Source: Poseidonia sp. (GTDB taxonomy: Archaea > Thermoplasmatota > Poseidoniia > Poseidoniales > Poseidoniaceae). Taken from it: 64,000 nucleotides of DNA. Shown here in pieces: positions 10,373 to 31,158 of the stretch; the first letter of the stretch is position 1, and each line of letters starts with the position of its first letter. The stretch spans positions 1,434 through 65,433 of the forward strand of contig JADHNB010000001.1 of NCBI GenBank assembly GCA_016779705.1. Direction: 5' to 3'. The translations under genes and the position numbers were made by a program. The notes beneath the pieces are model-generated. The model was not told the DNA's origin, searched no databases, and was given only the letters and a program-made list of their open reading frames with translations.

Positions 10373-11605
10373 TCACCCGTTGATGATGGCGTGGGGGTCA
10401 ATGAGAACCGAGAATTCATCCAAATACGGTCCCATGGAACTGATCAAATCCACCTCAGGATGACCCTTGAGGACCATCCCGTCCATGTACATGAGCGAGC
10501 GGATGATGGGAAAGGCCTCTTCACCAAAGGCGCAACCGGCCAGCACGGCGGCCTTCACCGTCTTCATCATCTGTTCCGTCAGCGAGACTTCGCTGACCGA
10601 GGTACCGACAAAACCGTCGTACAGTTCGTTCATCGAATCGTAGTACGTTTGAAGGGTTTTTCCGGTGGGTCGCACCGCCGCCATGGTCAGCATGGCGTCG
10701 AAGGCGTTCCGCAATTCGCCCTTGGCCAGGAAATAAAAGAAACCAAACAAGGCGTTGCGCACGTGCTCGGGTGCGTGGCAAATAGCGCCGGTATCAATGA
10801 AATAGAAGTCTCCGGACTCATCCATCATGGCGTTGCCGGGGTGCAAGTCACCGTGGAAGGTGCCAAGGCCGAACATGAACGCGCCGTGAATTCGGAACAA
10901 CTCGAGCATGTCCGTCCAAGCCATCGTGCCCGATTCGAGGTGGTCTTCAAGTGTGGGCGCCGTAATCTCCTCCATCACGAGAACGTGTTCATTGGACAAC
11001 GCCTCCCACATCTTGGGGAAACGGAGCTTGGGCATGGGGAAATGGGCTTCCACCTCAACGGCTTTGGCCATGAGGTCGTTTCGGCCCACGATTTCGTTGG
11101 TCAGGTTGAGTTCGCGCAACGTGTAGTCTTCGATGTGAGCCAACAAACCGATGGGGTTGCCCACCTTCCGAAGTCGAGGATTGAAAAACAACCCTATGCG
11201 AATCCACCGCTTCATGCGTCGTACATCACGACGAAACGACGCTTCAAAATCGGCTTTGATGATCTTGACGACCACCTTTGTGCCGTCCTTGAGAACCGCT
11301 CGGTGGATTTGCCCAATGCTTGCCGCAGCGAACGGCTTGGGTTCAATCGATTGGAAGTGGTCGGCGAATCCTTCGGGGGCAAAACGGTCCAAGAGCGCCT
11401 GAGAGTTCTCTTCGGGAATGGTGGCTGCACGGCTGTACAACCGTTGGAGTTCAATGCAACGTTCGGGCTCGATCAAGTCGGGTCGAAGAGCAAAGATTTG
11501 CCCCAACTTCACCGCCAACAATCCCATCGATTGAATCGCATCGATGTTCACCGGTTTCTTCCCTTTGAGTTGGCGAAAGAAACGGATGAAGGTCAGCAAC
11601 TTCAT
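10373..11605 (-). CDS. ubiB: ABC1/UbiB family atypical kinase
   Basis: ABC1 domain motifs LGQIFALRPDLIPE, AAASIGQIHRAVLKDGTKVVVKI, HGDLHPGN. Confidence 0.8.
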   Translation of the reverse strand: MKLLTFIRFFRQLKGKKPVNIDAIQSMGLLAVKLGQIFALRPDLIEPERCIELQRLYSRAATIPEENSQALLDRFAPEGFADHFQSIEPKPFAAASIGQIHRAVLKDGTKVVVKIIKADFEASFRRDVRRMKRWIRIGLFFNPRLRKVGNPIGLLAHIEDYTLRELNLTNEIVGRNDLMAKAVEVEAHFPMPKLRFPKMWEALSNEHVLVMEEITAPTLEDHLESGTMAWTDMLELFRIHGAFMFGLGTFHGDLHPGNAMMDESGDFYFIDTGAICHAPEHVRNALFGFFYFLAKGELRNAFDAMLTMAAVRPTGKTLQTYYDSMNELYDGFVGTSVSEVSLTEQMMKTVKAAVLAGCAFGEEAFPIIRSLMYMDGMVLKGHPEVDLISSMGPYLDEFSVLIDPHAIING

Positions 11606-14204: not shown

Positions 14205-14696
14205 ATGTCCCAACTGCTCTGCGACCTCGGCGTGGCTACCCGAGTGGTTCGGGACGGCCACATTCTCCTCGTCCAAGAAGCCAAGGGGCGCCATGCAGGC
14301 CGATGGGGCCTGCCCAAGGGCAACGTTGACGACAACGAGAGTCCCGAGAACGCCGCCCTACGAGAGCTTCGAGAAGAAACGGGCTTGGAAGGGCAACTGG
14401 TGGGATTGGCCGGCGTACGGACGGCGTTGCAAAGCAACGGCCCTGCCGTATTCCTGTGTTACGAAGCCACGGTGACCGATGACCAGCTCCAAACCGACGG
14501 CGACGAAATTGCCTCAGCCAGGTGGTTTTCGCTGGACGGGTTGAAGTCTCTTGAGTGGGTTTCTGAAACGATGCATCAACTCGCCGTTGACGGCTTTTGC
14601 CGGTCGACCGTCCTGGTCAACCAACGGGGCTTGACGCCCCGAACCAACCCGTATGCGGTGTACCGTGCCGCTGGTGCCCACGGTAGGGGGCGGTGA
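14205..14696 (+). CDS. NUDIX hydrolase
   Basis: Nudix box GRWGLPKGNVDDNESPENAALRELREETGL (GX5EX7REUXEEXGU). Confidence 0.75.
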   Translation: MSQLLCDLGVATRVVRDGHILLVQEAKGRHAGRWGLPKGNVDDNESPENAALRELREETGLEGQLVGLAGVRTALQSNGPAVFLCYEATVTDDQLQTDGDEIASARWFSLDGLKSLEWVSETMHQLAVDGFCRSTVLVNQRGLTPRTNPYAVYRAAGAHGRGR

Positions 14697-16246
14697 GACC
14701 CATGATTCCCCCTGCCCGCCTCCAAATTCACGGCGAAACCAACCCGGAAGGCGAGGTGGTTGTGTACTGGATGACGGCCGCCCGTCGCCCGTACTGGAAC
14801 CACGCCTTGCAGCATGCCATTGACCTCGCCAAGGAACACCACCTTCCGTTGGTGGTGATCGAGTGCTTGGCCCTCCACCACCGCTGGGCCAACGACCGCA
14901 TTTCCACCTTCGTGCTTCAAGGCATGGTGGACAACCGGGAGAGTTTTGCCAATTCAGGCGTGACCTACATCCCCTACGCTGAAACCAAGCGAAAGGAGGC
15001 TTCCGGGCTGCTTCAAGGCTGGCTCAAAAACGCCCGAGCCTGTGTGATCGATGACTACCCGACCTATTACCCAAAGCACGTCCTCAACACGGCGATCACC
15101 GTCAAGCCGTGTGAAGTTCACGTGGTGGACTCCAACGGATTCATGGCCATGAGGGCCCAAGGTCGGGACTTCTCAACGGCCTACTCGCTTCGTCGGCACC
15201 TCCACAAAACCATCCGCGAACACATGCACGAATTTCCAGAAGCGAAACCGTTGGCCAACGCCGCCGGCCTGCCGTGTGTGGATGCCTCGTTGGTGCAACG
15301 GGTTTTTGACGAAACCAACACCCCCATGACCCCGTATGAGTTTATTTGGCGCGTCGCTGAAGGTGGCGACGTGGGCCTTCAAGCCCTCTCGACGCTCAGC
15401 ATTGACCACGATGTGCCGCCGGTGGTCGGCAAACGAGGAGGCCATCTCGAAGGCCGACGCCGTTGGAAGGAGTTCTTCTCGAACCGGTTGGCCTTGTATC
15501 ACGAAAAGCGTAACGAACCGCAAGAGCGTGGCGCAAGCGGGTTGTCACCGTGGCTGCATTTTGGCCATTTGAGCGTCCACAACATCCTCCACGAAATCTT
15601 TGCCCATCACGGTTGGGACGTGAGTCTGGTCAATGCCCCCAACGACGGCCGCCGACAAGGTTGGTGGGGGTTGCCTGAACCGGTCGAAGCCTTCCTCGAC
15701 CAAATCATCACGTGGCGTGATATCGGCTTTATCCACTGCGCCATGATCGAGAACCACACCGATTACGAATCCTTGCCGGCTTGGGCCATCACCACGCTGG
15801 GCGAGCACGAGAACGACGAACGGCCCTACCTCTACACCTTCGAGGAATTTGAAAACGCCCAAACTCACGACCCGTTGTGGAACGCTGCCCAACTCCAACT
15901 TCGACAAGAAGGCATTATTCACAATTACCTCCGCATGCTGTGGGGCAAGAAAATCCTCGAATGGACGCCAAATGCCGAAATCGCCATGGAATGGATGATC
16001 GCCCTCAACGACCGATGGGCATTGGACGGTCGGGACCCCAACTCCTACACCGGCATCGGTTGGGTGCTCGGCAAGTTTGACCGAGGCTGGACCGAACGGG
16101 CGGTCTACGGGAAAATCCGTTGCATGACAAGTGACTCAACGGCTCGAAAATTCAAAACCAAAGGCTACGTTGCAAAATACACCAGCGGCACATCCCAGGC
16201 CGCGTTGCTCGGCTCGGGACCCAACTTCTACTCAACCCACCAGTGA
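14693..16246 (+). CDS. phr: Deoxyribodipyrimidine photolyase, class II CPD photolyase type
   Basis: Class II signatures GLSPWLHFGHLS, LWNAAQLQLRQEGIIHNYLRMLWGKKILEW, LDGRDPNSYTGIGWVLGKFDRGWTERAVYGKIR. GTG start overlapping the nudix stop. Confidence 0.85.
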   Translation: MRPMIPPARLQIHGETNPEGEVVVYWMTAARRPYWNHALQHAIDLAKEHHLPLVVIECLALHHRWANDRISTFVLQGMVDNRESFANSGVTYIPYAETKRKEASGLLQGWLKNARACVIDDYPTYYPKHVLNTAITVKPCEVHVVDSNGFMAMRAQGRDFSTAYSLRRHLHKTIREHMHEFPEAKPLANAAGLPCVDASLVQRVFDETNTPMTPYEFIWRVAEGGDVGLQALSTLSIDHDVPPVVGKRGGHLEGRRRWKEFFSNRLALYHEKRNEPQERGASGLSPWLHFGHLSVHNILHEIFAHHGWDVSLVNAPNDGRRQGWWGLPEPVEAFLDQIITWRDIGFIHCAMIENHTDYESLPAWAITTLGEHENDERPYLYTFEEFENAQTHDPLWNAAQLQLRQEGIIHNYLRMLWGKKILEWTPNAEIAMEWMIALNDRWALDGRDPNSYTGIGWVLGKFDRGWTERAVYGKIRCMTSDSTARKFKTKGYVAKYTSGTSQAALLGSGPNFYSTHQ

Positions 16247-17707: not shown

Positions 17708-20224
17708 ATGCGTCGCGCGGTGCTGCTGGGCCTCATCGCGTCGCTTCTCCTTATCCATCTCCCCAGTTCAGCCGCTGACAACACCCCCACCAGCGCCAAC
17801 GGTTTGACCGACGGTGTTTCTTCAAACGGCTATGTTTGCGACCCCGACGGCTGTTCGCCCAACGACAAAACGGACTATTGGAAAATTCAAGGCAAGCGAG
17901 GGGACATCGTTCGCGTTTCGTTCTCCGGCAGCATGAGCAACCCCGCCTGGTGGTGTCCTGGTGACGGTTGGATCGGGACCTTCACCATGGGCAGCGTGAC
18001 CTCCAACGTCGACGACGGTAACCCCTCCGCCCAGTTGTCAACCACGTTGGCCACGGCCGGCGAGGTTCTCATCAAGGTCGAGGCAGCGGATTCGTGGTGC
18101 AACGACGGGTTTGACTACACGCTCACGCCGGCCATTGACAAAACCAACCGTGACACCGACGAAGACGGGTTCATCGACACGGAAGATGACTGTGTTTTCT
18201 TGGTCGGGACCTCCACCAACGACCGAAACGGTTGCACCGATTCCGACGGCGATGGATGGTCGGACCCTGACAGCGGCTGGGGCGTTCAAAACGGCGCAGA
18301 TGCCTTTGCAAGTGAATCCTCACAATGGTTAGACTCCGACAACGACGGTTACGGTGACAACATCGAAGGGTTCCAAGGCGACCACTGCACGTACAGTCGT
18401 GGGTATTCCGATGCTGACCGCTTTGGATGCCTTGATACGGACGGCGACGGATACTCCGACCCCGACCCCGGTGGCTTGAACGGGTTTGTGCCGTGGTACG
18501 CTCATCCCGTGGGGGCGGCGGACGCCTTCTCCTTCGATAACTCGCAGTGGAACGACACGGACGAAGACGGCTACGGCGATAATTGGGCCGACCCCTCCAT
18601 CAATCAAACCCGATGGTTGTGGGGCATCGGCCAATTTGTGGACAACGCCACCAAACCCGACGCTTGCCCCTTTGTGCGTGGCGGTTCCTCTGCTGACCGC
18701 TTTGGGTGTGTGGACACGGACGGCGATTCGTATTCGGACGGTGACGAAAACTGGACGGTGAACAACGGCTCGGATGCGTTTCCCGTCGAGCCGACCCAAT
18801 GGCTTGATTCTGACCGTGACGGGTGGGGCGATAACCAAAGCGTTGGGGCGCAACTGATTGACGATTTCCCGTACAACCCCACCCAATGGCGGGACACCGA
18901 TGGAGACGGCTGGGGCGATAACCAAACCTACGGTGCCACCCAGATCGATGATTTCCCGTTCGTGCCTTCCCAATATCGGGACACCGATGGTGATGGGTAT
19001 GGCGATAATTTGACGGGGTTCGAGGGCGATGTTTGCCCTCAATCCACGCCTGAAGAGGTGGACTCCGGTTGGATCAGCCGTTACGATCGGTTGGGATGCC
19101 GTGACGTGGACAGCGACGGGTATTCCGACCCCACCGAGTTTTGGAACGCTCATCCTGACGGCTTTGCCGATGCCTTCCCGAACGACCCGTCCCAATGGCA
19201 CGACACCGACGATGATGGCTACGGCGACAACGCCGAATACTTCGACGGCCAAACTTGGCGAGCCTCCTACCGACCGGACGGCTGCCGCACCACGCCTGGC
19301 AATTCCACCTTTGACCGATGGGGCTGTCCCGACGGTGACGGCGACGGTTGGTCCGACCCCACGGCCTCGTGGTTGGCCAGTCCTGGTGGTAGCGGTGATG
19401 CGTGGCCTGAGGACCCAACGCAGTGGCACGACAGCGACGGGGACGGCCGAGGCGACAATCCACGCGGCACCACGGCGGACGTCTGTCCCGAGGTGGCCGG
19501 GACCTCCGTTGGACCTTCCTCGGGCGGGGACCGGTGGGGCTGCAAAGACACCGATGGGGACGGCTGGTCCGACCTTGGCGATGCGTTCATCCACGAACCG
19601 ACTCAATGGCGGGACTCCGACGGTGACGGCTACGGCGACCGCATGGAAGGTCACCAAGGCGATGCCTGTCCAGAGACTCGTGGCACCTCGTTGCTGGACC
19701 GACTCGGTTGTCGAGACACGGACGGCGACGGTTGGTCCGACCCAACGCCTGCTTGGCCCGCTCATCCGTTCGGGGCGGCCGATGCGTTCCCCACCGAAGC
19801 CTTGCAGTGGATGGACAGCGACCAAGACGGCTTCGGTGACCTTCCCCTTGGGGCGTTGCGAGACGACTGTCCCGAGGTTGCGGGGACGTCGACCCGAGAT
19901 GTTCAGGGCTGTCCCGATGGCAATCAAGACGGTTGGTCCGATGCGTACGGCGAATTGGCGGCGGCCATCGCCATCATGGGCGAAGACCCCGCCGCCTCAT
20001 GGCTCACCTACGCCGTCATCGGCGGCGGCTTCCTGTTGGGAGCCCTTGCCGCCTTGGTCGTGCGTGCATCACGACAACGGTCGCAGTTGATGGAACAACT
20101 CGTCGCCGACAAGGACCTGGAACTGATGATGGGGAACAACGAGCCTTCGGCGACCCCCCGATTGATTCCGTTGGACGAACTTCCGCCGTTGCCAGGCATG
20201 CCAGGGGGTGAAGAAGGTGCGTGA
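17708..20224 (+). CDS. Cell-surface protein (838 aa) with signal peptide, N-terminal beta-sandwich domain, about 11 thrombospondin-type-3-like Ca-binding repeats and a C-terminal TM anchor.
   Basis: Signal peptide MRRAVLLGLIASLLLIHLPSSAA. A reiterated unit about 60-70 aa long: CP..GTS..DRxGCxDTDGDGWSDP...AFP.DPTQWxDSDGDGYGDN. TM WLTYAVIGGGFLLGALAALVV plus charged tail. Confidence 0.7.
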   Translation: MRRAVLLGLIASLLLIHLPSSAADNTPTSANGLTDGVSSNGYVCDPDGCSPNDKTDYWKIQGKRGDIVRVSFSGSMSNPAWWCPGDGWIGTFTMGSVTSNVDDGNPSAQLSTTLATAGEVLIKVEAADSWCNDGFDYTLTPAIDKTNRDTDEDGFIDTEDDCVFLVGTSTNDRNGCTDSDGDGWSDPDSGWGVQNGADAFASESSQWLDSDNDGYGDNIEGFQGDHCTYSRGYSDADRFGCLDTDGDGYSDPDPGGLNGFVPWYAHPVGAADAFSFDNSQWNDTDEDGYGDNWADPSINQTRWLWGIGQFVDNATKPDACPFVRGGSSADRFGCVDTDGDSYSDGDENWTVNNGSDAFPVEPTQWLDSDRDGWGDNQSVGAQLIDDFPYNPTQWRDTDGDGWGDNQTYGATQIDDFPFVPSQYRDTDGDGYGDNLTGFEGDVCPQSTPEEVDSGWISRYDRLGCRDVDSDGYSDPTEFWNAHPDGFADAFPNDPSQWHDTDDDGYGDNAEYFDGQTWRASYRPDGCRTTPGNSTFDRWGCPDGDGDGWSDPTASWLASPGGSGDAWPEDPTQWHDSDGDGRGDNPRGTTADVCPEVAGTSVGPSSGGDRWGCKDTDGDGWSDLGDAFIHEPTQWRDSDGDGYGDRMEGHQGDACPETRGTSLLDRLGCRDTDGDGWSDPTPAWPAHPFGAADAFPTEALQWMDSDQDGFGDLPLGALRDDCPEVAGTSTRDVQGCPDGNQDGWSDAYGELAAAIAIMGEDPAASWLTYAVIGGGFLLGALAALVVRASRQRSQLMEQLVADKDLELMMGNNEPSATPRLIPLDELPPLPGMPGGEEGA

Positions 20225-21521
20225 AGGCCATCGTTCTTTCTCGACGTCGGTGCTTGTGTTGCTGCTTTTGACGACGGCGGCTCCCTTGGTTTCCGTTTCG
20301 GGGGAGCTGACCGCCGAGGAACGCCTTGCGGAGCGAGGCCTGACCGTTCTTGCCCTTCGAAACGACACCATCGACACCGACCAAGACGGCGACATCGATG
20401 CGGTCCGCGTCGTGGTGGTGCTCAACTCAACGGCGTCCCAAAACGACCTCATCGTGAAACTCCGCGGTCTTCACAAGGAACGAGAGGTGCTTGAGGTCAC
20501 CGAAGTTTCGTTTTCCATCCAAACCAACATCACGCTCGTTTACGATGCCTGGTCAAGAGGCGAACATCGCCTTCGCTTGGATTTCTTTGACGACGACGGC
20601 GAATTCATCGCTTCGTATCCGCTGCCAAACTTTGTCTTAGTGCCCGCCCTTCAGGTGCCGACGGTTCAACTCAACTTGAACGCCGGCGCCACCTTGCAAA
20701 CCGGTGAGGCGTGTGAGGTCGTTCGTGTGTTTAGCGACGAAACCGGTCCACGTTACGGGGAAAGCGGGACACGAACCTTCACTGGAGCCCCCTTCAGCGT
20801 CCTTGATGCGCATGGAACGCTGGATTGTTCGTCGTGGCCTGCCGGCGACTATGCCCTGCGAGAAACGTACCGCAACGGGCTTGGGCAAACCGCCGAAGCC
20901 ACCCTGAATTTCACCATCACCAACCGCCCGGCCCCCCAATTCACCATCGCTGTTTCCGGTCACGGTAACACCACCAACACACCCTGCAGTCTTGCGATGA
21001 AAACGGCCGGAGTCGATGCGGGATGGACCAAGGTTTGGCGAGTCAAAGGGGCGGTTGTTGAAGGCGCTAACACGTCCACGCTGGATTGTTCACAACTACC
21101 AGCTGGAGCCTACCTCGTCACGTTGGAGGTCATCAACGACAAGATGATCACCTCAACGGAGGGCGTCAATCTCATTCGCATGCCTTCTCCAGAGGCGACG
21201 CTCAACCGTACTCAAACGGGCCCCTCGGCCTCCTTGGGCGAAGACACGCCAACCGAATCCGTCGGTTGGCTGTCCATTGGGGTGCTGGCCTTGCTGGTCA
21301 CGTTGGTGGTCTTCGTGGCGATGGCTCGAGACCGTCGCCTCGAACCCCTTGAACTCCCGGCCTTGGGCCCGATTGCACAAGTGTTGCCTGATGGGAGTCC
21401 TGACACCATGGGCCTGCCCACCATCACGGATGACCAAGGCGTGTTGTGGCGCAAGCACCCCGACGGTCGGTTGGACTGGTGGGACAGCGAGTGGCAAGTT
21501 TGGCACGGGTGGGACGCATGA
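20208..21521 (+). CDS. Secreted/surface glycoprotein-like protein with N-terminal signal peptide, many N-x-S/T sequons, C-terminal TM helix and a Trp-rich tail.
   Basis: Signal MKKVREGHRSFSTSVLVLLLLTTAAPLVSVSG. Sequons NDT, NST, NIT, NFT, NTT, NTS, NRT. TM WLSIGVLALLVTLVVFVAMA. Overlaps the upstream gene by 17 nt. Confidence 0.5.
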   Translation: MKKVREGHRSFSTSVLVLLLLTTAAPLVSVSGELTAEERLAERGLTVLALRNDTIDTDQDGDIDAVRVVVVLNSTASQNDLIVKLRGLHKEREVLEVTEVSFSIQTNITLVYDAWSRGEHRLRLDFFDDDGEFIASYPLPNFVLVPALQVPTVQLNLNAGATLQTGEACEVVRVFSDETGPRYGESGTRTFTGAPFSVLDAHGTLDCSSWPAGDYALRETYRNGLGQTAEATLNFTITNRPAPQFTIAVSGHGNTTNTPCSLAMKTAGVDAGWTKVWRVKGAVVEGANTSTLDCSQLPAGAYLVTLEVINDKMITSTEGVNLIRMPSPEATLNRTQTGPSASLGEDTPTESVGWLSIGVLALLVTLVVFVAMARDRRLEPLELPALGPIAQVLPDGSPDTMGLPTITDDQGVLWRKHPDGRLDWWDSEWQVWHGWDA

Positions 21522-22396
21522 GTCCGTTGGAAGCGTTGGGTGTGGGCTTTGGCGCCTTGGGGTTGCTCGTTGGCATGCGCCTTTTCTACGTCTGGCGAAC
21601 CCGCATCCGACCCCTTCAACCCTCCTTGGATTTGGAGTGGGCGGTGGATTGCGAGCACCTCACCACCGCCACGGTCGACGGCAACGACATCACGTTTCAC
21701 ATGGTACGAGATTTCACGTGGCGGACCACGCGTGACCGTGACGAAAACTGGGCCGAGTCGGTCCATGTCCGCCTTGATGAATTGAAGGACGTGTGGTTCA
21801 TCGTCGACCACTTTCATGCGTTGAAAGGCCTCGCTCACACCTACCTCACCTTTGAATTCGAAGACGGAACTTGCTTGTCCTTCTCCTTCGAGACCCGGCG
21901 TGAAAAAGGCGAGCGATACCATCCTTGGGACGGGTTGTGGCGAGCCTACGAACTCTACTTGCTGGTCGGCTTCGAGCGCGACGTCACCGGTTTGCGGACC
22001 CACGGTCGCAGAAACAAGGATTACATGTTCAGGGCCATCACCCCTCCTGGCAAGGACAAGGACTTGCTCATGGGGCTGATCGGCAAGCTGAATCAACTCG
22101 CCGTCGAGCCCGAGTGGTACCATTCCTTGCTGACGACTTGCAACACCTCCATTGTTCGCATTGTCAATCAGGTCACCCCGGGACGCATCCCGTTCCTCTG
22201 GCGAAATTTCTTACCGGGCTACACCCCAAAAGCGGCGTTCAAACTGAAACTGATCGAGGATTGGGGCGGTCTTGAACAAACCCTCGCTTCAGCCAGAATC
22301 GACGAACGCGCTCAGGCATGGGACGGGGAAGAGGATTACTCCGCTATGCTTCGCTCCTTCCTTCCGTCATCGCCGAAGAGCGAGGATGCACCATAA
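21518..22396 (+). CDS. Membrane-anchored DUF4105-like protein
   Basis: N-terminal TM (LGVGFGALGLLVGMRLFYVW), then a region resembling DUF4105 (LTFEFEDGTCLSFSFETRREKGERYHPWDGLWRAYELYLLVGFERDV). ATGA overlap with the upstream gene. Family assignment is from memory, not a search. Confidence 0.4.
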   Translation: MSPLEALGVGFGALGLLVGMRLFYVWRTRIRPLQPSLDLEWAVDCEHLTTATVDGNDITFHMVRDFTWRTTRDRDENWAESVHVRLDELKDVWFIVDHFHALKGLAHTYLTFEFEDGTCLSFSFETRREKGERYHPWDGLWRAYELYLLVGFERDVTGLRTHGRRNKDYMFRAITPPGKDKDLLMGLIGKLNQLAVEPEWYHSLLTTCNTSIVRIVNQVTPGRIPFLWRNFLPGYTPKAAFKLKLIEDWGGLEQTLASARIDERAQAWDGEEDYSAMLRSFLPSSPKSEDAP

Positions 22397-23003
22397 GCAA
22401 ACGGCCTTCGGAGAACTCAACTTCAACCCTGGAGCCCAATGAACGGTTGTGAAGACCGTGCGACCCTGTCTCCAAGGCGGTCTTGTCCATCGGATAGGCA
22501 CACCCCGTGAGGGTGATGTTGTTGGCAAACGGGACGGCGAACAGGGAGAACGTTTGGTGCGGCTCCATCTCTATAGAATAGGCCTCTCCGGGACGAAAAA
22601 ACCGGAAAACATGGGTTGAGGTCAGCGATTGGAGGTCCATCTCCTGTTCTGCGCACACCAGCATGTTAGCCCAAGCGTGTTGCGGGTCACCGTCGTGAAC
22701 ACCGACCAAAACGCCTTTCGAGGCGCCTCTCGCCTTCGCCAGCTTGAGGGCTTTGGAGAGGTCGTTGGTGTTTGGGTCCCTGACCTCCACCACCTCACCC
22801 CCTCCTCGAGCGAAGGTCGCAAGGATCTCGGGCTCCACACTGTCCAGGTCCCCGACCACGGCATCAACGTGAATGCCAAGCTCAACGCACCGGTTGAGGG
22901 CACCGTCGCAAGCCAACGTGAAATCCACCTGGTTTTGCAGTTCTCGAATCGTCGCTGGCTCGCACCATGGGCCGTTGGCGAGGATGAGCCCAACGCGCCC
23001 GGT
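22344..23003 (-). CDS. Thiamine pyrophosphokinase
   Basis: TPK catalytic motifs VVGDLDSV (GDxDS) and DPNTNDLSKAL (DxxxTDxxKAL). Start chosen at the internal Met (MTGRVGLILANG). Confidence 0.6.
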   Translation of the reverse strand, partial: TGRVGLILANGPWCEPATIRELQNQVDFTLACDGALNRCVELGIHVDAVVGDLDSVEPEILATFARGGGEVVEVRDPNTNDLSKALKLAKARGASKGVLVGVHDGDPQHAWANMLVCAEQEMDLQSLTSTHVFRFFRPGEAYSIEMEPHQTFSLFAVPFANNITLTGCAYPMDKTALETGSHGLHNRSLGSRVEVEFSEGRLLMVHPRSSAMTEGRSEA

Positions 23004-23054
23004 CATGCTGAGGCCTAGCCGCACGTCTTTCTCAAGGCAACGGTGAACGCGTCC

Positions 23055-23073
23055 TGACCCCCGTAGGGGGTCA
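23055..23073. promoter_or_regulatory. Perfect GC-rich hairpin/palindrome TGACCCCC-GTA-GGGGGTCA in the divergent region, about 50 nt upstream of the giant gene start.
   Basis: 8-bp inverted repeat with 3-nt loop, read directly. Confidence 0.3.
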
Positions 23074-23121
23074 ACGCCTGAATCAACAATGATTTTCAAG
23101 GTCGGAGGCTGTGAGGCGTCC

Positions 23122-26100
23122 ATGTCGGACGCCGATACGCAATCGTTTCACATCAAAAGCGTTCTGCTGGTGCTTCTGTTTCTGCTGTCCATCGCCAGCC
23201 CAATCGTCCCTGCATACGGGCCGTCTGAGGTCCTCGAGCAAGCCTCTCCATCGGCTCGCATGGCGCCGTTTAACCTCGCTTCTGGCTACGGCCATGAACT
23301 GGCCGGGACGACGGTGACCGTTGACGGCCTCGACAACGCCTTGGTGAGGGAGGAATCGATGTTTGACTACTGGATCACCACCGAACTCAACAACTCCAGC
23401 ACCGAGCATCACGGCACTCCCGACATGAAACTCACCCGGGCTGACATGGAGCACTACTGCTGGTCGACCGAAGAAGGGTCCATCCGAACCGCCATTCACC
23501 GCCCGAATGGGGCATGGAGCACGACCTTGGTTGACACCGTTGCCGCCACGAATACCTCATCGTTGGTTGATTGCGCCATTGCCGTGACGGGGAACGAGCT
23601 TCCTCGGGTGCTTTATGCAGACGGTGCTGACCTGAAAATGGGGCGGTACGCACGCGAGAGCGCCACGTATTACGACGGGCCACGTTGGCACACTCGGACC
23701 ATCATGGAGAATGTTGAGCCAACCCACCTTGAACTTGAAATCACGCCTGAAGGCGTGGAGTGGGGCTTGATGCGCACGGTGGACGGTGCCTTGCACCAAG
23801 TGAACTTCAGCGGGGCGTACTGGACCTCCTTCCTGCTGGATGTTGGCCCCATAGGGGACGATTTCGAATTGGCCATGGATGACAACGGCACCGCTCACGT
23901 TCTCTACACGCGTTCCAACGCCCAAGAAGTCGTGCTCCTGCGCGTCAGCGGCATGGAACGTGACGTCCGGATTCTCGAGCGAAACAGCGACCTGGTGGAC
24001 GCTTTGGGCATGGACCTTGATGCCAATGCCGTCGAGCAAATCGCCACCGCCACGCAAACCGGGCCGTCGTTTTCCATCAACCTCATTCGTTCGCTCGCTG
24101 GGCAAGACGCCGGACGTGTTGACCCCGTCCCCCTGGATGGACGAGAAGGCGTTGAAGATGAAGAAGAAGGTTCGTTGTTGATGGCGGATTTCAACAACGA
24201 CGGCTTTGATGATTTGGCCATCGCCACCCCCACCGCTGACCTCGTTGGTTTTACCGACAACGGCCGAGTGGACGTTTACTTCGGTTCTTCCGCAGGGCTG
24301 AGTGCGACGCCCGATGCCATCCTCGCCGGCGCCAACGACAACGCCCGATTCGGTCAAGGCTTGGATGCCGGGGATTACAACCACGACGGCATCGTTGATT
24401 TGGCCGTTGGCTCCCCTGGTTGGCAACCAACCGGTCAAACCGATCTTCACAACGGCCAGGTGAGCGTTCATCTTGGCGGGCCCTCTGGCCTTCAATCCAC
24501 ACCATGGTGGACCGCGAACGGTTCGGAAAACGAATCGCTAGGGGCTGTCCTGACCACCTTGGAGCGAACCTCAGAAGCCGACGGATTGGCTGCGGCGGCC
24601 CACGGCTACACGCTCGAAGTGAGCGAATCTCAAACCAACGTCGGCAAGGTGGTGCTGTACGGCGGTGGAACCGATGCGATGGCCATGGAGCGAAACCTCA
24701 CTCAATCCAAGTCCGGACCGATGTTTGGCCGCTCGTTGGAAGGCTGCGATATCAACGGTGACGGTTTGGATGAGTTGATCGTGGGCAACACGGGAACTTT
24801 TGCCAGTTCCCTGGGCTATTCGTCGATCGAGTACTACTACGGCAACGCCTCCGGCTACGCAGGAACCCCCGAGCACACGCTTGAATCGCTCTCCCAGGGT
24901 CGTCTGTTTGGCCACAACATCGTCTGCGCTGGCGACCTCAACGGTGACGGGTACAACGAACACCTGTTGACCGAACCGTTCAACAGCACGCAAACCGTGT
25001 TTGGCACCGGTGTCTTGTGGCTCTACAACGGCACCTCCGGTTCGCTCCCTTCCGAAGCGGACTGGAAATACTTCCCCAGCATCGGCAATCAAAAAATCGG
25101 CGAAGCCATTTCACCTGCAGGCGACATCAACGAGGATGGGTACGATGACCTCTACATGAGCAGCCAAATGGGGTCGAAAGCCGGCCGATTGGAGATTTTC
25201 CTCGGTTCAGCTAACGGATTGCGGTCCGACAAACAGTTGCTGGCCGATGGAAACGGGTCCGAACAACTCGGCTTCCGCCTCGCCAGCAACGGCGACCTCA
25301 ACGGCGACGGTTTGAGTGAAGTGGTCTTTTCCCAGAGGACCTTCGAACGAGGCGACGCCTTTGCGCTCAATTACGTGATCCTCTCCGAGCGAGATTGGGA
25401 ATCCATTTCGTTTGAGTACACCGGGTCCATCTCCGCCCTGGACCTCGCCACGGCGGCACGAGGCGAGACCAGCATGGCGTTCGTTCATCAGGACAGCCTC
25501 CGTTCGTACGTTGGAAAACTGGAGCACATGAACGACGGCACTCCCTCCGGTCAATGGGTTCATCAAACCGTTGAACGCACCACCACGTCGAACGTCACCG
25601 TTGAATTTGGCGTTCGTTCCTCGGGCCAACCCTTGGTGGTCGTTGAGGACGACGCTTCGATCCGTTTGCATTCAACCACTTCCATGACCGCCGTCCAACA
25701 AGAGGTGGCGACCACCGGGACCATGGGTCAATTTATCGGTTCGAACGTCAACCAAGATAACGAACAAGTTCTTGCTTACACTTCGGGGGCCGGCAATCAA
25801 ATCTTTGCAACCGAGCAATCTTCAACGGGCTGGTCGACCGATTTGGTGCGGACCAACGCCGCGTTGGCCAACGGCATTGAAGTGCTCTTTGACAGCGCCG
25901 ACGTCCCTCGTTTGGTTTACCGCCACAACACCACGAGCCAACTTGAGATGGCGGTCGGTGGGAGCAGTTGGTCCCTGACGCCCTTGGGCAATGCAGGGGA
26001 CGCCGTTTCGTTGCAACACCCCGCGGTGATGCTTGCCAACGACACCCTCGCCGTGGCCCTCCTCTCCTCCAACGGAAGCGCCACCAACCTTGCCCTGTGG

Positions 26101-29100
26101 ATGCATGACGGCACCGCACTCAGCGAACAAATCATCGCCAACGCCAGCGATGTCGAGGCTGAACTCGGTCTCGCGGTGCTGGCCAACGGCTCATTGCTCG
26201 TGGCTTCGCTGAATCAGTCAGGCGCACTCCGGTTGTATGAACAGTGGCCCGGTGACACCGCTTGGCAAACCCACACCCTCGTTCAGCCCAGCGGCACCAA
26301 CGGGGAGTATCGTCTCGATCTTGAGGGCGGCACAACGCCCGTCTTGGCGGTTCGTGCCAACGCCGTCTCCTCCATCTTGATGCCCAACGGCACCGGCGAG
26401 TGGAAGGCCGTTGCGGAGCGTCCAGCGGCGGCTCACGACGGGGCGTGGGACGTTTTGGTGGTCAACGACCATCTCTTGTTGTTGACCAGTGATGAAAGCA
26501 CCCATCAACTGACCGTGAACACGCTTGAACTCAGCAGCGTTCAGCAAAGTTACTCTCCTTGGATGTCGGCCAAGTTTGGTGACGTCCTCGTCACTCACAA
26601 AGTGGATGCTGCATTCGACACGAACGGCACGGTGCACATGGGGTACTGGGACGAGGTTGACAACGACGCTCTTTTGTTGCGACTTTACGTTGACCAAGAC
26701 CGGGACCTCGTGTTTGACCTGATGGACGACCTGCCCACGGTGGGCAACCAATGGGCGAACAGTGACGGCGACAATTTCGGTGACAACCCGCTGGGGCCGC
26801 TGCCGGACCAATGCCCCACCGTGGCTGGGCTTTCGTCCTACATCATCTTTGGATGCGTTGATTACGACACCGATGGTTTCACCGACAGCATTGACGGATG
26901 CGATTCCCAAGGCGGGACGTCATGGATTGACCGATTTGGATGCGAAGACCTCGACCAAGACGGATGGTCCGACAACGGCGCCACCTACTACGGAGGTGAC
27001 GTGTACAAAGGAAACTGGAAGCAGGCCCTTGATACCGACGGCGACGGCTTCGGCGATAATCACGGCGTTGATTGCTGTTCAACGGTTCTCGACCCCAACG
27101 CTGGACCCGGTGACCTGTTCCCGTACTTGGCCTCCCAATACGCCGATTACGACGGTGACGGGTTCGGTGACAACGACACCGACGCCGTGCACGGAGACTT
27201 CTGTCCCTGGGATTACGGTGAATCGTGGCGAGACCGAAACGGATGTTTGGACTCGGACGGCGACGGTGCAAGCGATCCGTCTGCTGAAGGGACCTTCTTC
27301 GAGTGGAACACCAGCCGAGGGGCGGATGTTTGGCCCTTTGACGCCACACAGTGGAAGGACACGGACGGCGACGGCTACGGTGACAACCAATCGGAGAATG
27401 CGACGTCTCCCGACCGCTTCCCGCAACGCATTGTGGCGGCCAACGACACCGACGGCGACGGCTTCCCGGACAATTGGACCGCCTTTGCCTCGCTCGACGA
27501 TGACGGGGACGGGGTGCAAAACCTCGACGACCGTTGCGTGGATTCCGACGCCGCCTTGGCCATCGACGCCGAGGGCTGCGACACGGACCAAGTGGCCAAC
27601 ACCACGTTCCCGAGAACCTCATACAAAGCCGGGCTTGAACTTGACCAATGCCCCGAAGAATGGGGCAACTCCAGCCTCCCGGTCAAAGGCTGTCTTGATT
27701 CCGACGGTGACGGCTACACCGACCAATACACCTACACGGTGAACGAGACGACGGGGCTGCGAGAAGGCCAAACCGGCGATGCCTTCCCCTTCATCAAATC
27801 GCAAGTTCAAGACACCGACGGTGACGGATTTGGCGACAATCCCGCCGGCGAACAAGGCGACCAGTGTCCCTTTGAACCCGGTGTACTCAACGGCACCGAA
27901 GGGGTCGGCTGCCGCCTCATCGATGTCAACGACGACGATGGCGACGGGGTCATCAACGACGTGGATGTCCTGTGCCCGAACAGTCCGTTGGGCGAGCCGG
28001 TGAACGAGGAGGGTTGTGCTCAATCCGAACTTGACGATGACGATGACGGCGTCAAGAACAACGCCGACCTCTGTGCAAATTCCCCGGTCGCAACAGCCGT
28101 GGACGAGGATGGATGCACCAACGAACAGCGAACCTCCGACTCTGACGGGGACGGATTGAACGACCCTCAAGACCGCTGTCCTGGAACCGAGGCGGGTGCT
28201 GATGTTGATGAGAACGGTTGCTCTCAAGGGCAACGAGACAGCGACGGGGACGGTCTCTCCGACCTTGACGATGCCTGCGACGATACCCCGCCTGGTTTCC
28301 CCATTCTCGCCAACGGTTGCACCGACGAGAGCGCTCTCACCGTCGATCTTGACGGTGATGGATATGCAGGCCTCTACACCTACGACCTCGACCCGGACAC
28401 GGGGCTTCACGTCAATCAAACGGGCGATGCCTTCCCCAGTGACCCCACCCAATGGTTTGACCGGGACGGCGACGGCTACGGTGACAACAGCGATGGTACC
28501 AATGCAGACCATTGCCCCGACGAAAACGGGACGTCCTACATCGATTTCCTGGGTTGTTACGACGACGGTGACGGTTGGAGCGATGCCAATGAACCCGAAG
28601 CCTTGCGAGGCAATCCAACCCAATGGAAAGACACGGATTTCGATGGTTTCGGGGACAATTGGGGCGACCCCGCATGGACGGCCCTGCGAGATCCGTCATG
28701 GCCCGGAGAGTTTGTTGAAGGGGCCACCAACGCCGACTTTTGTCCCAAAACGACCTTTGGCTTGCAAGTCGATGACGAAGGTTGCCATCCCTCCGAACGA
28801 GATTCGGATTTGGACGGCGTGATGGACGATTCCGACAACTGCCCCGACGACCCCAAAGGCGTGGACGGTTACGAAGACGGTTGCCCCTACATTCCTTTAT
28901 CCGGCGACGGCGATGAGGGCCTGTTCGGCGTTGATGCTGGCACGCTCATGGTCATCGCTGGCGGCGGCGTCTTGGGCATCTTGGTCTTGATGTTGGTGGT
29001 GCGCCTTGCGCGGAGGGGAGGTGGTGACGACGAGGACGACGACGATTACGACGACTTTTTCGACGAAGACAACGAAGAAGAGAGTTTCCTCGACACGTTG

Positions 29101-29595
29101 GACGCCAAGCGGGCTGCACCAACCCGGGCTCGTCCATCGGCCAATCAACGGGCTTCTGCCCCCTCCGGTCGCGGCCCCAGCGCCGGGCCCTCAACCCCCG
29201 GACCCGGGGGTCCTCCAAAGCGAAGCGGTGCCGGTCCTCCTCAACGCGGAGCAGGCGGTCCGCCCCAACGTGGCCCCGGAGGCCCACCTCGTTCTTCGGA
29301 TGAACCGCCCCGTCAATCCTCGTCGGCCTCCGCACAAAAAGTTGCGAAGAAGAAGTCCGTGACGGCGGTCGACGAGAGCCCTTCAGCCAAGGTTCGTAAA
29401 GCGAAGATCCAAGTTGACCTCTCCATCTTTGAAGACTGGCAAGCTGACGACCGTGAGTCGGCCGTTGATTGGGTCGTGGGCGCCTTCGGCGACGGTGACG
29501 AAGAGCGTACCGTGCTCATGCAATTGCAAGAAACAGGGTGGACCGCTGAACAATCTCGGGCCATTTGCAACCTTGCGAAGAACAAAGGGGCTTGA
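23122..29595 (+). CDS. Giant cell-surface protein (about 2157 aa). Order of parts: signal peptide, N-terminal region, FG-GAP/integrin-alpha-like beta-propeller repeats, long beta-rich middle, about 25 TSP3-like Ca-binding repeats, TM anchor, acidic plus Pro/Gly-rich cytoplasmic tail.
   Basis: Signal MSDADTQSFHIKSVLLVLLFLLSIASPIVPAYG. FG-GAP motifs (DFNNDGFDDLAIATP, GDYNHDGIVDLAVGSP, CDINGDGLDELIVGN, GDLNGDGYNEHLL, GDINEDGYDDLYMSS, NGDLNGDGLSEVVFSQ). TSP3-like units (DTDGDGFGDN, DSDGDGLNDPQDRCP, etc.). TM LMVIAGGGVLGILVLMLVV. Tail DDEDDDDYDDFFDEDNEEE and PGPGGPPKRSGAGPPQRGAGGPPQRGPGGPP. Confidence 0.8.
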   Translation: MSDADTQSFHIKSVLLVLLFLLSIASPIVPAYGPSEVLEQASPSARMAPFNLASGYGHELAGTTVTVDGLDNALVREESMFDYWITTELNNSSTEHHGTPDMKLTRADMEHYCWSTEEGSIRTAIHRPNGAWSTTLVDTVAATNTSSLVDCAIAVTGNELPRVLYADGADLKMGRYARESATYYDGPRWHTRTIMENVEPTHLELEITPEGVEWGLMRTVDGALHQVNFSGAYWTSFLLDVGPIGDDFELAMDDNGTAHVLYTRSNAQEVVLLRVSGMERDVRILERNSDLVDALGMDLDANAVEQIATATQTGPSFSINLIRSLAGQDAGRVDPVPLDGREGVEDEEEGSLLMADFNNDGFDDLAIATPTADLVGFTDNGRVDVYFGSSAGLSATPDAILAGANDNARFGQGLDAGDYNHDGIVDLAVGSPGWQPTGQTDLHNGQVSVHLGGPSGLQSTPWWTANGSENESLGAVLTTLERTSEADGLAAAAHGYTLEVSESQTNVGKVVLYGGGTDAMAMERNLTQSKSGPMFGRSLEGCDINGDGLDELIVGNTGTFASSLGYSSIEYYYGNASGYAGTPEHTLESLSQGRLFGHNIVCAGDLNGDGYNEHLLTEPFNSTQTVFGTGVLWLYNGTSGSLPSEADWKYFPSIGNQKIGEAISPAGDINEDGYDDLYMSSQMGSKAGRLEIFLGSANGLRSDKQLLADGNGSEQLGFRLASNGDLNGDGLSEVVFSQRTFERGDAFALNYVILSERDWESISFEYTGSISALDLATAARGETSMAFVHQDSLRSYVGKLEHMNDGTPSGQWVHQTVERTTTSNVTVEFGVRSSGQPLVVVEDDASIRLHSTTSMTAVQQEVATTGTMGQFIGSNVNQDNEQVLAYTSGAGNQIFATEQSSTGWSTDLVRTNAALANGIEVLFDSADVPRLVYRHNTTSQLEMAVGGSSWSLTPLGNAGDAVSLQHPAVMLANDTLAVALLSSNGSATNLALWMHDGTALSEQIIANASDVEAELGLAVLANGSLLVASLNQSGALRLYEQWPGDTAWQTHTLVQPSGTNGEYRLDLEGGTTPVLAVRANAVSSILMPNGTGEWKAVAERPAAAHDGAWDVLVVNDHLLLLTSDESTHQLTVNTLELSSVQQSYSPWMSAKFGDVLVTHKVDAAFDTNGTVHMGYWDEVDNDALLLRLYVDQDRDLVFDLMDDLPTVGNQWANSDGDNFGDNPLGPLPDQCPTVAGLSSYIIFGCVDYDTDGFTDSIDGCDSQGGTSWIDRFGCEDLDQDGWSDNGATYYGGDVYKGNWKQALDTDGDGFGDNHGVDCCSTVLDPNAGPGDLFPYLASQYADYDGDGFGDNDTDAVHGDFCPWDYGESWRDRNGCLDSDGDGASDPSAEGTFFEWNTSRGADVWPFDATQWKDTDGDGYGDNQSENATSPDRFPQRIVAANDTDGDGFPDNWTAFASLDDDGDGVQNLDDRCVDSDAALAIDAEGCDTDQVANTTFPRTSYKAGLELDQCPEEWGNSSLPVKGCLDSDGDGYTDQYTYTVNETTGLREGQTGDAFPFIKSQVQDTDGDGFGDNPAGEQGDQCPFEPGVLNGTEGVGCRLIDVNDDDGDGVINDVDVLCPNSPLGEPVNEEGCAQSELDDDDDGVKNNADLCANSPVATAVDEDGCTNEQRTSDSDGDGLNDPQDRCPGTEAGADVDENGCSQGQRDSDGDGLSDLDDACDDTPPGFPILANGCTDESALTVDLDGDGYAGLYTYDLDPDTGLHVNQTGDAFPSDPTQWFDRDGDGYGDNSDGTNADHCPDENGTSYIDFLGCYDDGDGWSDANEPEALRGNPTQWKDTDFDGFGDNWGDPAWTALRDPSWPGEFVEGATNADFCPKTTFGLQVDDEGCHPSERDSDLDGVMDDSDNCPDDPKGVDGYEDGCPYIPLSGDGDEGLFGVDAGTLMVIAGGGVLGILVLMLVVRLARRGGGDDEDDDDYDDFFDEDNEEESFLDTLDAKRAAPTRARPSANQRASAPSGRGPSAGPSTPGPGGPPKRSGAGPPQRGAGGPPQRGPGGPPRSSDEPPRQSSSASAQKVAKKKSVTAVDESPSAKVRKAKIQVDLSIFEDWQADDRESAVDWVVGAFGDGDEERTVLMQLQETGWTAEQSRAICNLAKNKGA

Positions 29596-29652
29596 CAACC
29601 GTCGTGAGGGCTTAAATGACGAGCAGGTTTGGGCGGAAGAGGAGAGAGATGC

Positions 29653-31158
29653 ATGGTGGATGAACCCTCATCAAATTCTCCCACCATTGAAGTCGATGAA
29701 GCCGCGGCTTACTTCGGCGTTACCGAATCCTCCGACGTGCTTCACGCCATGATGGCCATGCCAAGGGAACAAGCCATGATTCAGTTCTTTGAGTTGCTCT
29801 CCGACATCGTTCTTCGCCCCGGTGACTTTGACTTTGAAGCGGCCAGCGAGCGGATGCAATGCGAAGGCGGCGAGATCTACTATCTCGTTGCCGGTCACCT
29901 CGGTCTGATGAGCATGCCCGACCCGATTCTGCAAGCCTTGGGCATGCCCGATTCGAATGGAGAGGCCTCCGGTTCAGCCGTCGGTTCCATGGATGAACAG
30001 CAACGGGAAGCGTTGACGTCGATGGCCGACCCCATGCGGATGATGAAACTCTTCGCCGTGGCCCAGCAAACGGGTGGAAGTGCGGAAGTGCAAACCTACC
30101 TCTCAACCCTTGAAGGCCTCCTTGCCGATGTCGGCTCGTCCATCCCTGCGTTGGCCACGGTCCATCGGGAGTTGGACGCGGCGCTCGATGTCGCCGGTCA
30201 TGTGCTGCCCATCGCTTCGCTGGCCAGCGGTGCAGCTTCCGCAGCTTCGGTTGACGTCCCTGAGACCGTGGCCCTCCCCGAAGCGCCTCCCGAACCTGAA
30301 CCGGAACCTGCGGCAGCGCTGGAAACCACGCCTTCCCCTTCACCGGCCCAAGACCGCGTACCGTTGCCAGGGCAGGCAGCGGTCGCAGCGCCTCCGTCCG
30401 AGGAACCCACGGAATCAATCCCCCTACCCTCCGCTTTGGTGGCCTTACCCGACGTTGCCAAAGAAGCCGAATCCGAACCCGTGATCAACGTGGAGAACGA
30501 CCGGGAAGTGGCCAGAGCCACCCAAGATGCCTTCGCTGGAGCCTTCAGTTCTCAACTTGAACCCAAGCCCGTGGTCCAACCACCTGAACCCCCCGCCGAA
30601 CCCCCTGAAGAGGAAGAGTTCGTCAGCGCCGCCGAGCACTTCATCGCCGCCGATGAAGACGGCAGCGGTGCCTTGGACGTTGAAGAACTCGCCCGTGCGA
30701 CCGGGACCTCCATTGAAGAGGCCACCGAACTCCATGCTCAAGCCGACATCGACGGTGACGGAGTGGTCTCCCTCTCCGAGTTTATCGCCTCACCAGCGGC
30801 GGAGAAGACCGCTGGTCTGCCCAAACCCGTCGCCCCCGTCCGCCGCCCCTTGGGCCAGCCCGGCCAGGCCGCTGCACCACCCAATCCAGTGCAGCAGCGC
30901 CCGCAACCGCTTCAACCGTCATCGCACCCTCCAATGGGTCAGCAACCCATGCAGCCTCAAGGCTGGCAACAACAACCTCTGCAGGATCCTCAAAGCTGGC
31001 AACAACAGCCCATGCAACCCCAGGGTTGGCAGCAACCCCAACGACCGTTGGTCCAGCCCACCATTCGTTCAGGTATCCACTGTCGGGGTTGCGGCATCGG
31101 TTTGGACCCGTATTGGAGATTTTGTCCCGTTTGCGGGCAGCAAAACCTCGGATACTGA
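29653..31158 (+). CDS. Acidic protein with an EF-hand pair, a Pro/Gln-rich low-complexity repeat and a C-terminal zinc ribbon.
   Basis: Canonical EF loops DEDGSGALDVEE and DIDGDGVVSLSE. Repeat QQPMQPQGWQQQPLQDPQSWQQQPMQPQGWQQPQ. Zn ribbon CRGCGIGLDPYWRFCPVCGQ. Start ambiguous (29629 or 29653). Confidence 0.6.
   Translation: MVDEPSSNSPTIEVDEAAAYFGVTESSDVLHAMMAMPREQAMIQFFELLSDIVLRPGDFDFEAASERMQCEGGEIYYLVAGHLGLMSMPDPILQALGMPDSNGEASGSAVGSMDEQQREALTSMADPMRMMKLFAVAQQTGGSAEVQTYLSTLEGLLADVGSSIPALATVHRELDAALDVAGHVLPIASLASGAASAASVDVPETVALPEAPPEPEPEPAAALETTPSPSPAQDRVPLPGQAAVAAPPSEEPTESIPLPSALVALPDVAKEAESEPVINVENDREVARATQDAFAGAFSSQLEPKPVVQPPEPPAEPPEEEEFVSAAEHFIAADEDGSGALDVEELARATGTSIEEATELHAQADIDGDGVVSLSEFIASPAAEKTAGLPKPVAPVRRPLGQPGQAAAPPNPVQQRPQPLQPSSHPPMGQQPMQPQGWQQQPLQDPQSWQQQPMQPQGWQQPQRPLVQPTIRSGIHCRGCGIGLDPYWRFCPVCGQQNLGY

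Follow-up and report, generated by a model that had tools for sequence, protein, structure and literature searches.

Marine Group II (MGII) archaea are among the most abundant archaea of surface seawater; to our knowledge they have never been cultured, and we know of no account of their cell envelope. A 64,000-nucleotide (nt) stretch of a Poseidonia sp. genome (order Poseidoniales, contig JADHNB010000001.1), hereafter the window, contains a block of genes that probably belongs to a conserved envelope neighbourhood, in which two proteins with long stalks of calcium loops, one of 838 amino acids (aa) and a giant of 2157 aa, are encoded together with a smaller membrane protein, a putative enzyme of the DUF4105 family and a protein with EF-hands and a putative zinc ribbon. 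The original prediction, drawn from the sequence alone, had described a cell-surface locus, possibly a calcium-dependent adhesion or envelope system, with six plus-strand genes around a thiamine pyrophosphokinase (TPK) gene; there are actually five plus-strand genes, and TPK, on the minus strand, is the sixth:

17708..20224, plus strand: gene for the 838-aa protein (open reading frame and translation)
20208..21521, plus strand: gene for the 437-aa protein (434 aa if the start is GTG 20217)
21518..22396, plus strand: gene for the 292-aa DUF4105 protein
22344..23006, minus strand: TPK, with its start at Met40 placed from the orthologue alignment
23122..29595, plus strand: gene for the 2157-aa giant, starting at the conserved second Met
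29653..31158, plus strand: gene for the 501-aa EF-hand/zinc-ribbon protein

Several of these boundaries depend on the choice of start codon. The reading frame of the giant runs to 2168 aa from its first ATG, and since the orthologues keep only the second Met (23122), that position and a length of 2157 aa were adopted. The 501-aa protein starts at ATG 29653 and not at TTG 29629, near-identical database proteins also being 501 aa long. The 437-aa gene overlaps the DUF4105 gene by 4 nt (ATGA, 21518-21521), as had been noticed earlier. A further overlap of 17 nt, between the 838-aa and 437-aa genes, is obtained only with the start GTG 20208; because the orthologues of the 437-aa protein have Met at the codon equivalent to GTG 20217, an overlap of 8 nt is more likely. 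The two runs of plus-strand genes, that for the 838-aa, 437-aa and DUF4105 proteins (unit 1) and that for the giant and the 501-aa protein (unit 2), are each likely to be co-transcribed.

Stalked surface proteins and their calcium-loop repeats

The 838-aa protein, the 437-aa protein and the giant share one topology, with a hydrophobic signal-like segment at the N-terminus and a single C-terminal helix with an arginine cluster behind it. Their ectodomains are all acidic and about twofold enriched in N-x-S/T sequons (838-aa protein, net charge -115 and 9 sequons vs 4.6 expected; 437-aa protein, -18 and 7 vs 2.4; giant, -251 and 33 vs 14.9). All three are presumably glycosylated type I surface proteins, and the placement of the locus at the cell surface is borne out by these products with their sequon-rich, very acidic ectodomains. 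There are 17 copies of the DxDxDGxxD motif in the 838-aa protein and 20 in the giant, where residue shuffles give 0.13 ± 0.36, and 37 of the 38 matches found by a six-frame scan of the whole 64-kb window fall inside these two genes. Both had been described as proteins like thrombospondin type 3 (TSP3) that end in a membrane anchor; the loops and the C-terminal helix are there, but the helix is not the end of either chain, being followed by cytoplasmic tails of 53 and 197 aa, respectively.

According to hydropathy and a structural model, the 838-aa protein consists of a signal peptide, a β-sandwich head, a calcium-loop stalk, the membrane helix and the 53-aa tail:

17822..18139, plus strand: head domain, aa 39-144, with strands from E39 to E144 in the AlphaFold2 (AF2) model
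18152..19942, plus strand: stalk, aa 149-745, about nine long units of 56-130 aa with 17 DxDxDGxxD loops and paired cysteines
20006..20062, plus strand: membrane helix, then RASRQR (hydropathy and model)

The AF2 model, built from 67 orthologues, has a mean pLDDT of 83.8 and a pTM of 0.38, and its stalk of about 600 residues is predicted at a pLDDT of about 90 with almost no secondary structure. In Foldseek comparisons, the head resembles the collagen-binding domain of ColG (1nqj; E = 8e-6, TM-score 0.71), from which it may be taken to share the β-sandwich fold of this collagen-binding/pre-peptidase C-terminal domain of clostridial collagenases; its sequence is 12-15% identical to that of the ColG domain, the Pfam scan of the head gave no match, and neither did a search of the whole protein against the sequences of solved structures. 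The stalk of the model matches the TSP3 repeats of Capnocytophaga gingivalis OmpA (PDB 5wtl; E = 2e-4, 35% identity over 178 columns), so that structure prediction of the repeats, suggested as a check, speaks for the TSP3 likeness. Among the 67 orthologues (49-84% identity), which include one protein named Thalassarchaeaceae, no Cys and no loop Asp varies, and the number of units is constant. The protein has 2862 homologues, and among the matches listed all are unnamed or 'hypothetical' and carry no Pfam domain. One partial MGII protein among the homologues (P0210) has a Peptidase_S8 (subtilase) domain followed by the same long calcium-loop stalk, a reuse that fits a general role of the stalk as a spacer displaying head domains.

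The giant is built along similar lines, from a signal, a β-rich domain, an FG-GAP propeller, a second β-rich domain, a calcium-loop stalk, a membrane helix and the 197-aa cytoplasmic tail (residue numbers follow the 2168-aa frame):

24172..25326, plus strand: FG-GAP β-propeller, aa 362-746 (Pfam, phmmer)
26761..28884, plus strand: stalk, aa 1225-1932, mixed long units and short units of 33-35 aa, 17 calcium loops
27913..28320, plus strand: four consecutive short units, aa 1609-1744 (Pfam TSP_3 on the fragment)
28945..29001, plus strand: membrane helix, then RLARR (hydropathy)
29416..29592, plus strand: final 59 aa or so of the tail, conserved (tblastn)

The propeller, one of the features proposed from the sequence, is well supported by Pfam FG-GAP (68.2 bits, cut-off 22.1, five stretches) and matches integrin α-IIb, α-5, α-4 and α-V at E of about 1e-8 in phmmer searches; FG-GAP, FG-GAP_3 and TSP_3 are the only Pfam families found in the protein. 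The likeness to integrin α extends to blades with DxNxDGxxD calcium loops, direct sequence similarity and a type I topology with a cytoplasmic tail. Unlike in integrin α, the propeller sits between two β-rich domains atop a TSP3-like stalk, Pfam finds no thigh or calf domains in the giant, and no gene resembling a β subunit is present in the block. No family matches the regions that flank the propeller (aa 41-350 and 760-1225); the two regions resemble each other weakly (E = 0.005), which makes them a candidate internal duplication only. The tail contains an acidic stretch and then a Pro/Gly/Arg-rich stretch, before an end that is 43-81% identical in MGIIa and 37% identical in MGIIb by tblastn; the Pro/Gly-rich part preceding it is not alignable, and Pfam has no match to the conserved end. 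In one related locus (L006, about 11517-11549), the frame of the giant is broken 10 codons after the first Met, reflecting a frameshift, pseudogenisation or a fault in the assembly.

Cutting the stalks at the recurrent 'GC' yields two types of repeat unit. The long unit (generally 56-79 aa, though some compound units are longer; consensus xDxDGDGWSDP...DAFPxxPxQWxDxDxDGYGDN...DxCPxxxGxS..DRxGC) accounts for nearly the entire stalk of the 838-aa protein and for part of that of the giant. The short unit (33-35 aa, DxDGDGVxDxxDxC...GC) makes up the run in the giant at aa 1609-1744; single copies are scattered elsewhere. When compared with Pfam TSP_3 (PF02412, gathering cut-off 25 bits), the whole 838-aa protein had no match at E ≤ 0.01, a single long unit reached 12.7 bits, a triple long unit had no match and the whole giant reached 16.5 bits only, while the four short units of the giant scanned alone passed the cut-off (28.5 bits, E = 1.2e-6). 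The TSP_3 family proposed for both proteins is therefore recovered in the short units as a fragment and not in the 838-aa protein. Against solved structures, the profile of the short unit finds the OmpA TSP3 repeats of 5wtl (E = 2.8e-15 over five stretches) and, weakly, COMP (3fby, E = 0.28), and that of the long unit finds nothing among their sequences. By sequence criteria, the short units are TSP3 repeats. A profile-profile comparison finds homology between the short unit and the second half of the long one (hhalign 92%, E = 6e-7), and the long unit therefore appears to be a variant of the known repeat, in which an extra cysteine-free loop and a DAFPxDPxQW linker precede a TSP3-like unit. 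The hallmarks of TSP3, namely reiterated DxDxDGxxDxxD loops, conserved cysteine pairs and a predicted lack of regular secondary structure, are present. Since the long double-loop repeat is missed by Pfam, a profile of it could annotate many archaeal surface proteins now called 'hypothetical'.

Two known systems are useful for comparison. As in thrombospondin and COMP (TSP_3, PDB 3fby), calcium loops alternate with cysteine segments along a chain without regular secondary structure; in contrast to them, the proteins here are archaeal, are anchored by a membrane helix, lack the thrombospondin C-terminal lectin-like domain, and are dominated by a double loop of 56-72 aa with its DAFPxDPxQW linker, which Pfam does not recognise. 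The closest solved relative of the stalk, by sequence profile as well as by Foldseek, is the C. gingivalis OmpA. Unlike in the OmpA family, binding heads here sit on a stalk of 600-700 aa, in a host without an outer membrane, and no OmpA peptidoglycan-binding domain appears in the Pfam and NCBIfam scans, where the PA1041 and TraB models match the repeats only, far below their cut-offs. Memberships suggested by the NCBIfam models MtsD, TraB, PA1041 anchor, XopAW and lanmodulin were all rejected, as the matches lie at the level of single repeats or loops and far below the cut-offs.

The smaller proteins of the block

The 437-aa protein (probably 434 aa) is the third of the type I proteins, with an N-terminal signal-like segment, an ectodomain and one C-terminal helix followed by arginines. 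Its ectodomain is Ig/E-set-like according to weak TcfC- and PKD-like Pfam matches, all below cut-off, and the protein has no match among the sequences of solved structures. It is alignable end to end with its MGIIb orthologues, with invariant DCS.WPAG and D..G..WR...DG..DWWD...W motifs, and the end of its cytoplasmic tail (window 21438-21518) is a Trp-rich motif, GVLWRKHPDGRLDWWDSEWQVW, found without change in both MGII families. The 'glyco' label once attached to this protein did not survive the Pfam scans, in which no glycosyl hydrolase or transferase domain appears; only the N-x-S/T sequons are enriched. A likeness of the Trp-rich tail to WW/DUF2510 motifs was not confirmed either, Pfam being empty even at E ≤ 10.

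The 292-aa protein has one hydrophobic segment, an N-terminal membrane helix, and then a DUF4105/Lnb_N domain of the permuted NlpC/P60 type. This assignment, made from the sequence at the outset, is confirmed by a Pfam Lnb_N match of 66.4 bits (cut-off 22.2) that covers profile positions 3-173 of 175. DUF4105, a family of 1977 representative clusters, belongs to the permuted NlpC/P60 superfamily, as does Lnb, a Bacteroides lipoprotein N-acyltransferase; the published catalytic triads are Asn66-His49-Cys148 in Lnb and Glu81-His64-Cys172 in TseH (PMC11573676, PMC12994826). The candidate triad here is as follows:

21836, plus strand: His107
21890, plus strand: Glu125
22139, plus strand: Cys208

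These three residues have the same order and similar spacing as those of Lnb (H49-N66-C148) and TseH (H64-E81-C172), and they are invariant across 38 members, down to 28% identity. The protein is thus a putative enzyme of the permuted NlpC/P60 type with its His-Glu-Cys triad intact. It differs from Lnb, in which the periplasmic domain is followed by five membrane helices, in having a single N-terminal helix, and in its host, an archaeon, whose lipids are ether lipids and from which no triacylated lipoproteins are known. The presence of such an enzyme with an intact triad in an archaeon raises the question of which lipid chemistry is performed.

In the model of the 501-aa protein, which lies downstream of the giant, a helical domain is followed by disordered linkers and the EF-hand pair, and then by a segment rich in Gln and Trp and the putative zinc ribbon:

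29692..30252, plus strand: helical N-terminal domain, aa 14-200 (model, confident)
30652..30780, plus strand: two EF-hand loops, aa 334-345 and 365-376
31081..31137, plus strand: CxxC-x10-CxxC putative zinc ribbon, four Cys

The two EF-hand loops, DEDGSGALDVEE and DIDGDGVVSLSE, are canonical 12-residue loops, and Pfam places both EF-hand_5 (31.5 bits, cut-off 25.9) and EF-hand_1 (26.5 bits, cut-off 25.4) above threshold. The modelled pair superposes on the calmodulin C-lobe at 1.6 Å, and its profile finds a calcium-dependent protein kinase (E = 2.7e-9) and calmodulin (E = 1.6e-8). With calmodulin it shares two canonical loops and 36-37% identity; unlike calmodulin, the protein has a single EF-hand pair, set among disordered linkers and combined with a helical domain and a zinc ribbon. 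The four cysteines of the ribbon are invariant in 51 orthologues and retained in MGIIb, the Pfam DZR score of the putative ribbon being 17.1 bits (cut-off 27.3) and the pLDDT of the model there 61-68. An EF-hand protein behind the giant, as proposed, is well founded, and three kinds of calcium motif, TSP3-like loops, FG-GAP loops and EF-hands, do stand side by side in the block. The helical domain (aa 14-200) has no relative detectable in sequence, profile or structure comparisons. With zero sequons, the protein is presumably soluble and cytoplasmic. The name 'septum formation inhibitor MinC', which one source gives to a homologue (P0485), is unsupported by any search run.

The MGIIb orthologues of the 501-aa protein retain the helical domain and the ribbon but differ in the EF-hand pair, which two of them possess (L087 and L088) and two others lack (L086, 11584-13221; L089, 12904-14187); the conserved function of the protein is therefore not calcium-dependent. 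Where the pair is kept in L087 (1510-2838) and L088, the second loop is degenerate, DTNKDEVLQYEE.

TPK is identified by the equivalog model TIGR01378 (103.2 bits, cut-off 76.4) and by Pfam TPK_catalytic. Its 3' end shares 53 nt with the DUF4105 gene, and it is probably a passenger gene on the opposite strand of the block. It evolves much faster than its neighbours, with a median orthologue identity of 37% vs 54-89% for all other probes; in one locus (L004), for example, TPK is 38% identical and the DUF4105 protein 86%.

Conservation of the gene order

With the DUF4105 protein as anchor, 80 species-level genome loci were gathered (identity 63-95%), whose titles are those of Poseidoniales, euryarchaeotal or unclassified archaeal metagenome-assembled genomes, except for two labelled bacterial. 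The order was compared with eleven probes across the block in the 42 loci that have full 10-kb flanks. Order and strands are identical in 41 of these 42 Poseidoniaceae loci, the sole exception, L043, being without the 838-aa and 437-aa genes, and the order is retained in Thalassarchaeaceae (MGIIb) at 24-45% protein identity, so that the comparison across related genomes proposed earlier came out in favour of a conserved arrangement. The junctions within unit 1 are kept as well, namely the overlap of the 838-aa and 437-aa genes and a spacing of -7 to +13 nt from the 437-aa gene to the DUF4105 gene in 64 of 67 loci. In unit 2, the 501-aa gene always follows the giant in the sampled loci, separated from it by 13 to about 120 nt where measurable.

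Some parts are nevertheless missing from individual lineages. The 838-aa and 437-aa genes are jointly absent at this position in L043 and in two shorter loci, L044 and L046, and the DUF4105 gene is missing in one MGIIb lineage (L085, L086). In L043 and L044, photolyase-like and epimerase genes directly precede the DUF4105 gene. An insertion behind the 437-aa orthologue is seen in MGIIb, where a gene for an AI-2E-family transporter (permease) occurs in L083 (13762-14805), L084 and L085 (13772-14890).

The upstream flank varies by lineage. The photolyase-like and epimerase genes are kept in 45-47 loci, whereas MGIIb and a divergent MGIIa clade have GT2 and GT4 glycosyltransferases and a PKD surface protein, a setting into which an envelope locus fits. 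These GT2, GT4 and PKD genes lie just upstream of the 838-aa orthologue (for example, L048, 2097-4244; L083, 7802-9933) and are replaced in the window by the photolyase-like and epimerase genes.

Interpretation of the neighbourhood

Taken together, the block is best explained, with a probability of roughly 0.6, as an old, conserved Poseidoniales envelope neighbourhood made up of two operon-like units, on either side of the passenger TPK gene, that encode calcium-stiffened, stalked surface proteins. Unit 1 would provide a collagen-binding-like head carried by about 600 aa of calcium loops braced by disulfides, a membrane partner of Ig-like type and a membrane-tethered DUF4105 enzyme, whose substrate may be a membrane lipid or a lipid-linked molecule. 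Unit 2 would provide the giant, with an integrin-α-like propeller in its head and a stalk of about 700 aa of like loops, and a cytoplasmic helical/zinc-ribbon protein that has EF-hands in MGIIa. The three type I membrane proteins would be N-glycosylated and exposed on the cell surface, where seawater calcium (about 10 mM) would permanently fill the loops; calcium and the cysteine pairs may then stiffen the stalks, so that the heads are held off the membrane, where they could attach to particles, polymers or other cells. Because the external sites would always be loaded in seawater, calcium outside the cell would play a structural part and would not serve as a signal. A link to the cell interior may be provided by the conserved cytoplasmic tails together with the soluble protein encoded next to the giant. 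The products are likely to be parts of the cell surface or of an adhesion apparatus.

Several observations weigh against this explanation. An adhesin that has to cope with variable targets would not usually be conserved as strongly as the 838-aa protein. The arginines of the DUF4105 protein (RTRIR) come after the helix, and under the positive-inside rule the enzyme domain would therefore be cytoplasmic, whereas that of Lnb is periplasmic. Both the TPK gene within the block and the convergent M29 peptidase gene downstream of it are as well conserved in position as the surface genes, in both families; part of the conservation is therefore plain synteny, and order alone does not prove one system. 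Finally, the independent absence of the 838-aa and 437-aa genes (L043, L044, L046), of the DUF4105 gene (L085, L086) and of the EF-hands (L086, L089) means that the parts are not mutually obligatory.

The last two points also count in favour of a rival account, in which unrelated surface and housekeeping genes lie together only through broad Poseidoniales synteny, with no functional link beyond the overlapping genes. The M32 peptidase downstream holds its position like TPK and M29, the photolyase-like and epimerase genes are widely kept upstream, and sub-blocks are lost independently, all as this account would have it. It is nonetheless rather unlikely, for the order outlasts divergence to 24-45% identity while the upstream flank changes completely, the reading-frame overlaps of unit 1 are conserved, the 838-aa and 437-aa genes are lost together, and the giant and the 501-aa gene were never seen apart in the loci sampled.

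At the other extreme, all plus-strand genes may form one calcium-dependent adhesion or envelope system, in which the external sites and the internal EF-hands cooperate, for example in outside-in coupling. The gene order conserved in both families of the order, the adjacency of three types of calcium motif, the conserved tail ends of the giant and the 437-aa protein, and the invariable position of the 501-aa gene close behind the giant are what such a system would lead one to expect; against it, the lack of EF-hands in two orthologues indicates that the core of the 501-aa protein is not calcium-binding, some lineages do without the 838-aa and 437-aa pair and others without the DUF4105 gene, the minus-strand TPK splits the block, and the external sites would be saturated in seawater. 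The order is conserved as in a single module, but the block is not more conserved than unrelated neighbours and its parts do not all co-occur. Of the calcium-dependent adhesion or envelope system first proposed, the surface locus and its conserved order hold, whereas a single calcium-dependent system from both units and all their calcium motifs is unproven, TPK and M29 being equally fixed and parts being lost independently; as a whole, this account is improbable.

Less probable again is that the two repeat proteins are not adhesins but the main S-layer-like coat of MGII, a calcium-bridged lattice. They occur in nearly every genome sampled, apparently at a single locus, with no variation in repeat number or calcium ligands, their ectodomains are very acidic and rich in sequons, and glycosyltransferases are adjacent in several lineages; however, no lattice-forming domain is apparent in the 838-aa model, which is elongated and lacks secondary structure (pTM 0.38), and the 838-aa gene is absent at the position in three loci. 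More doubtful than any of these is an integrin-like transmembrane linkage serving as the main envelope scaffold of MGII, with the giant, the 838-aa protein and its Ig-like partner as stalked, calcium-stiffened receptors coupled via their conserved tails to the zinc-ribbon protein, which has EF-hands in MGIIa and would relay binding inward, and with the DUF4105 protein remodelling a lipid or anchor.

There are two earlier reports on related genes, a genome survey in which 'thrombospondin genes' in MGII were taken as a hint of adhesion (PMC6461757) and a description of lineage-specific calcium-binding families in Poseidoniales (PMC9258230); in the literature searched, neither the conserved locus nor the domain make-up of its products is described. 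A near-universal pair of conserved, exposed surface proteins would offer antibody or probe targets for sorting and enriching MGII cells, candidate virus receptors and a testable model of particle attachment.

A few features of the window lie outside this argument. A scan for bacterial sigma-70 promoters and terminators gave counts at or below shuffle expectation, the models being bacterial and not meaningful for an archaeon, and an Rfam scan of the window returned two tRNAs only, both outside the block. A gene for a TrmB-type regulator lies near the block; together with the 100% identity of the 292-aa protein to one from a 'Candidatus Poseidonia sp.' assembly, it places the window in Marine Group IIa (MGIIa, Poseidoniaceae). 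The photolyase-like reading frame upstream (window 14693-16246) matches the Pfam photolyase and FAD-binding models weakly (E of about 1e-4, below cut-off) and may be a divergent member of the family. Farther upstream, window positions 3998-7642 encode a full five-domain cobalamin-dependent methionine synthase (MetH).

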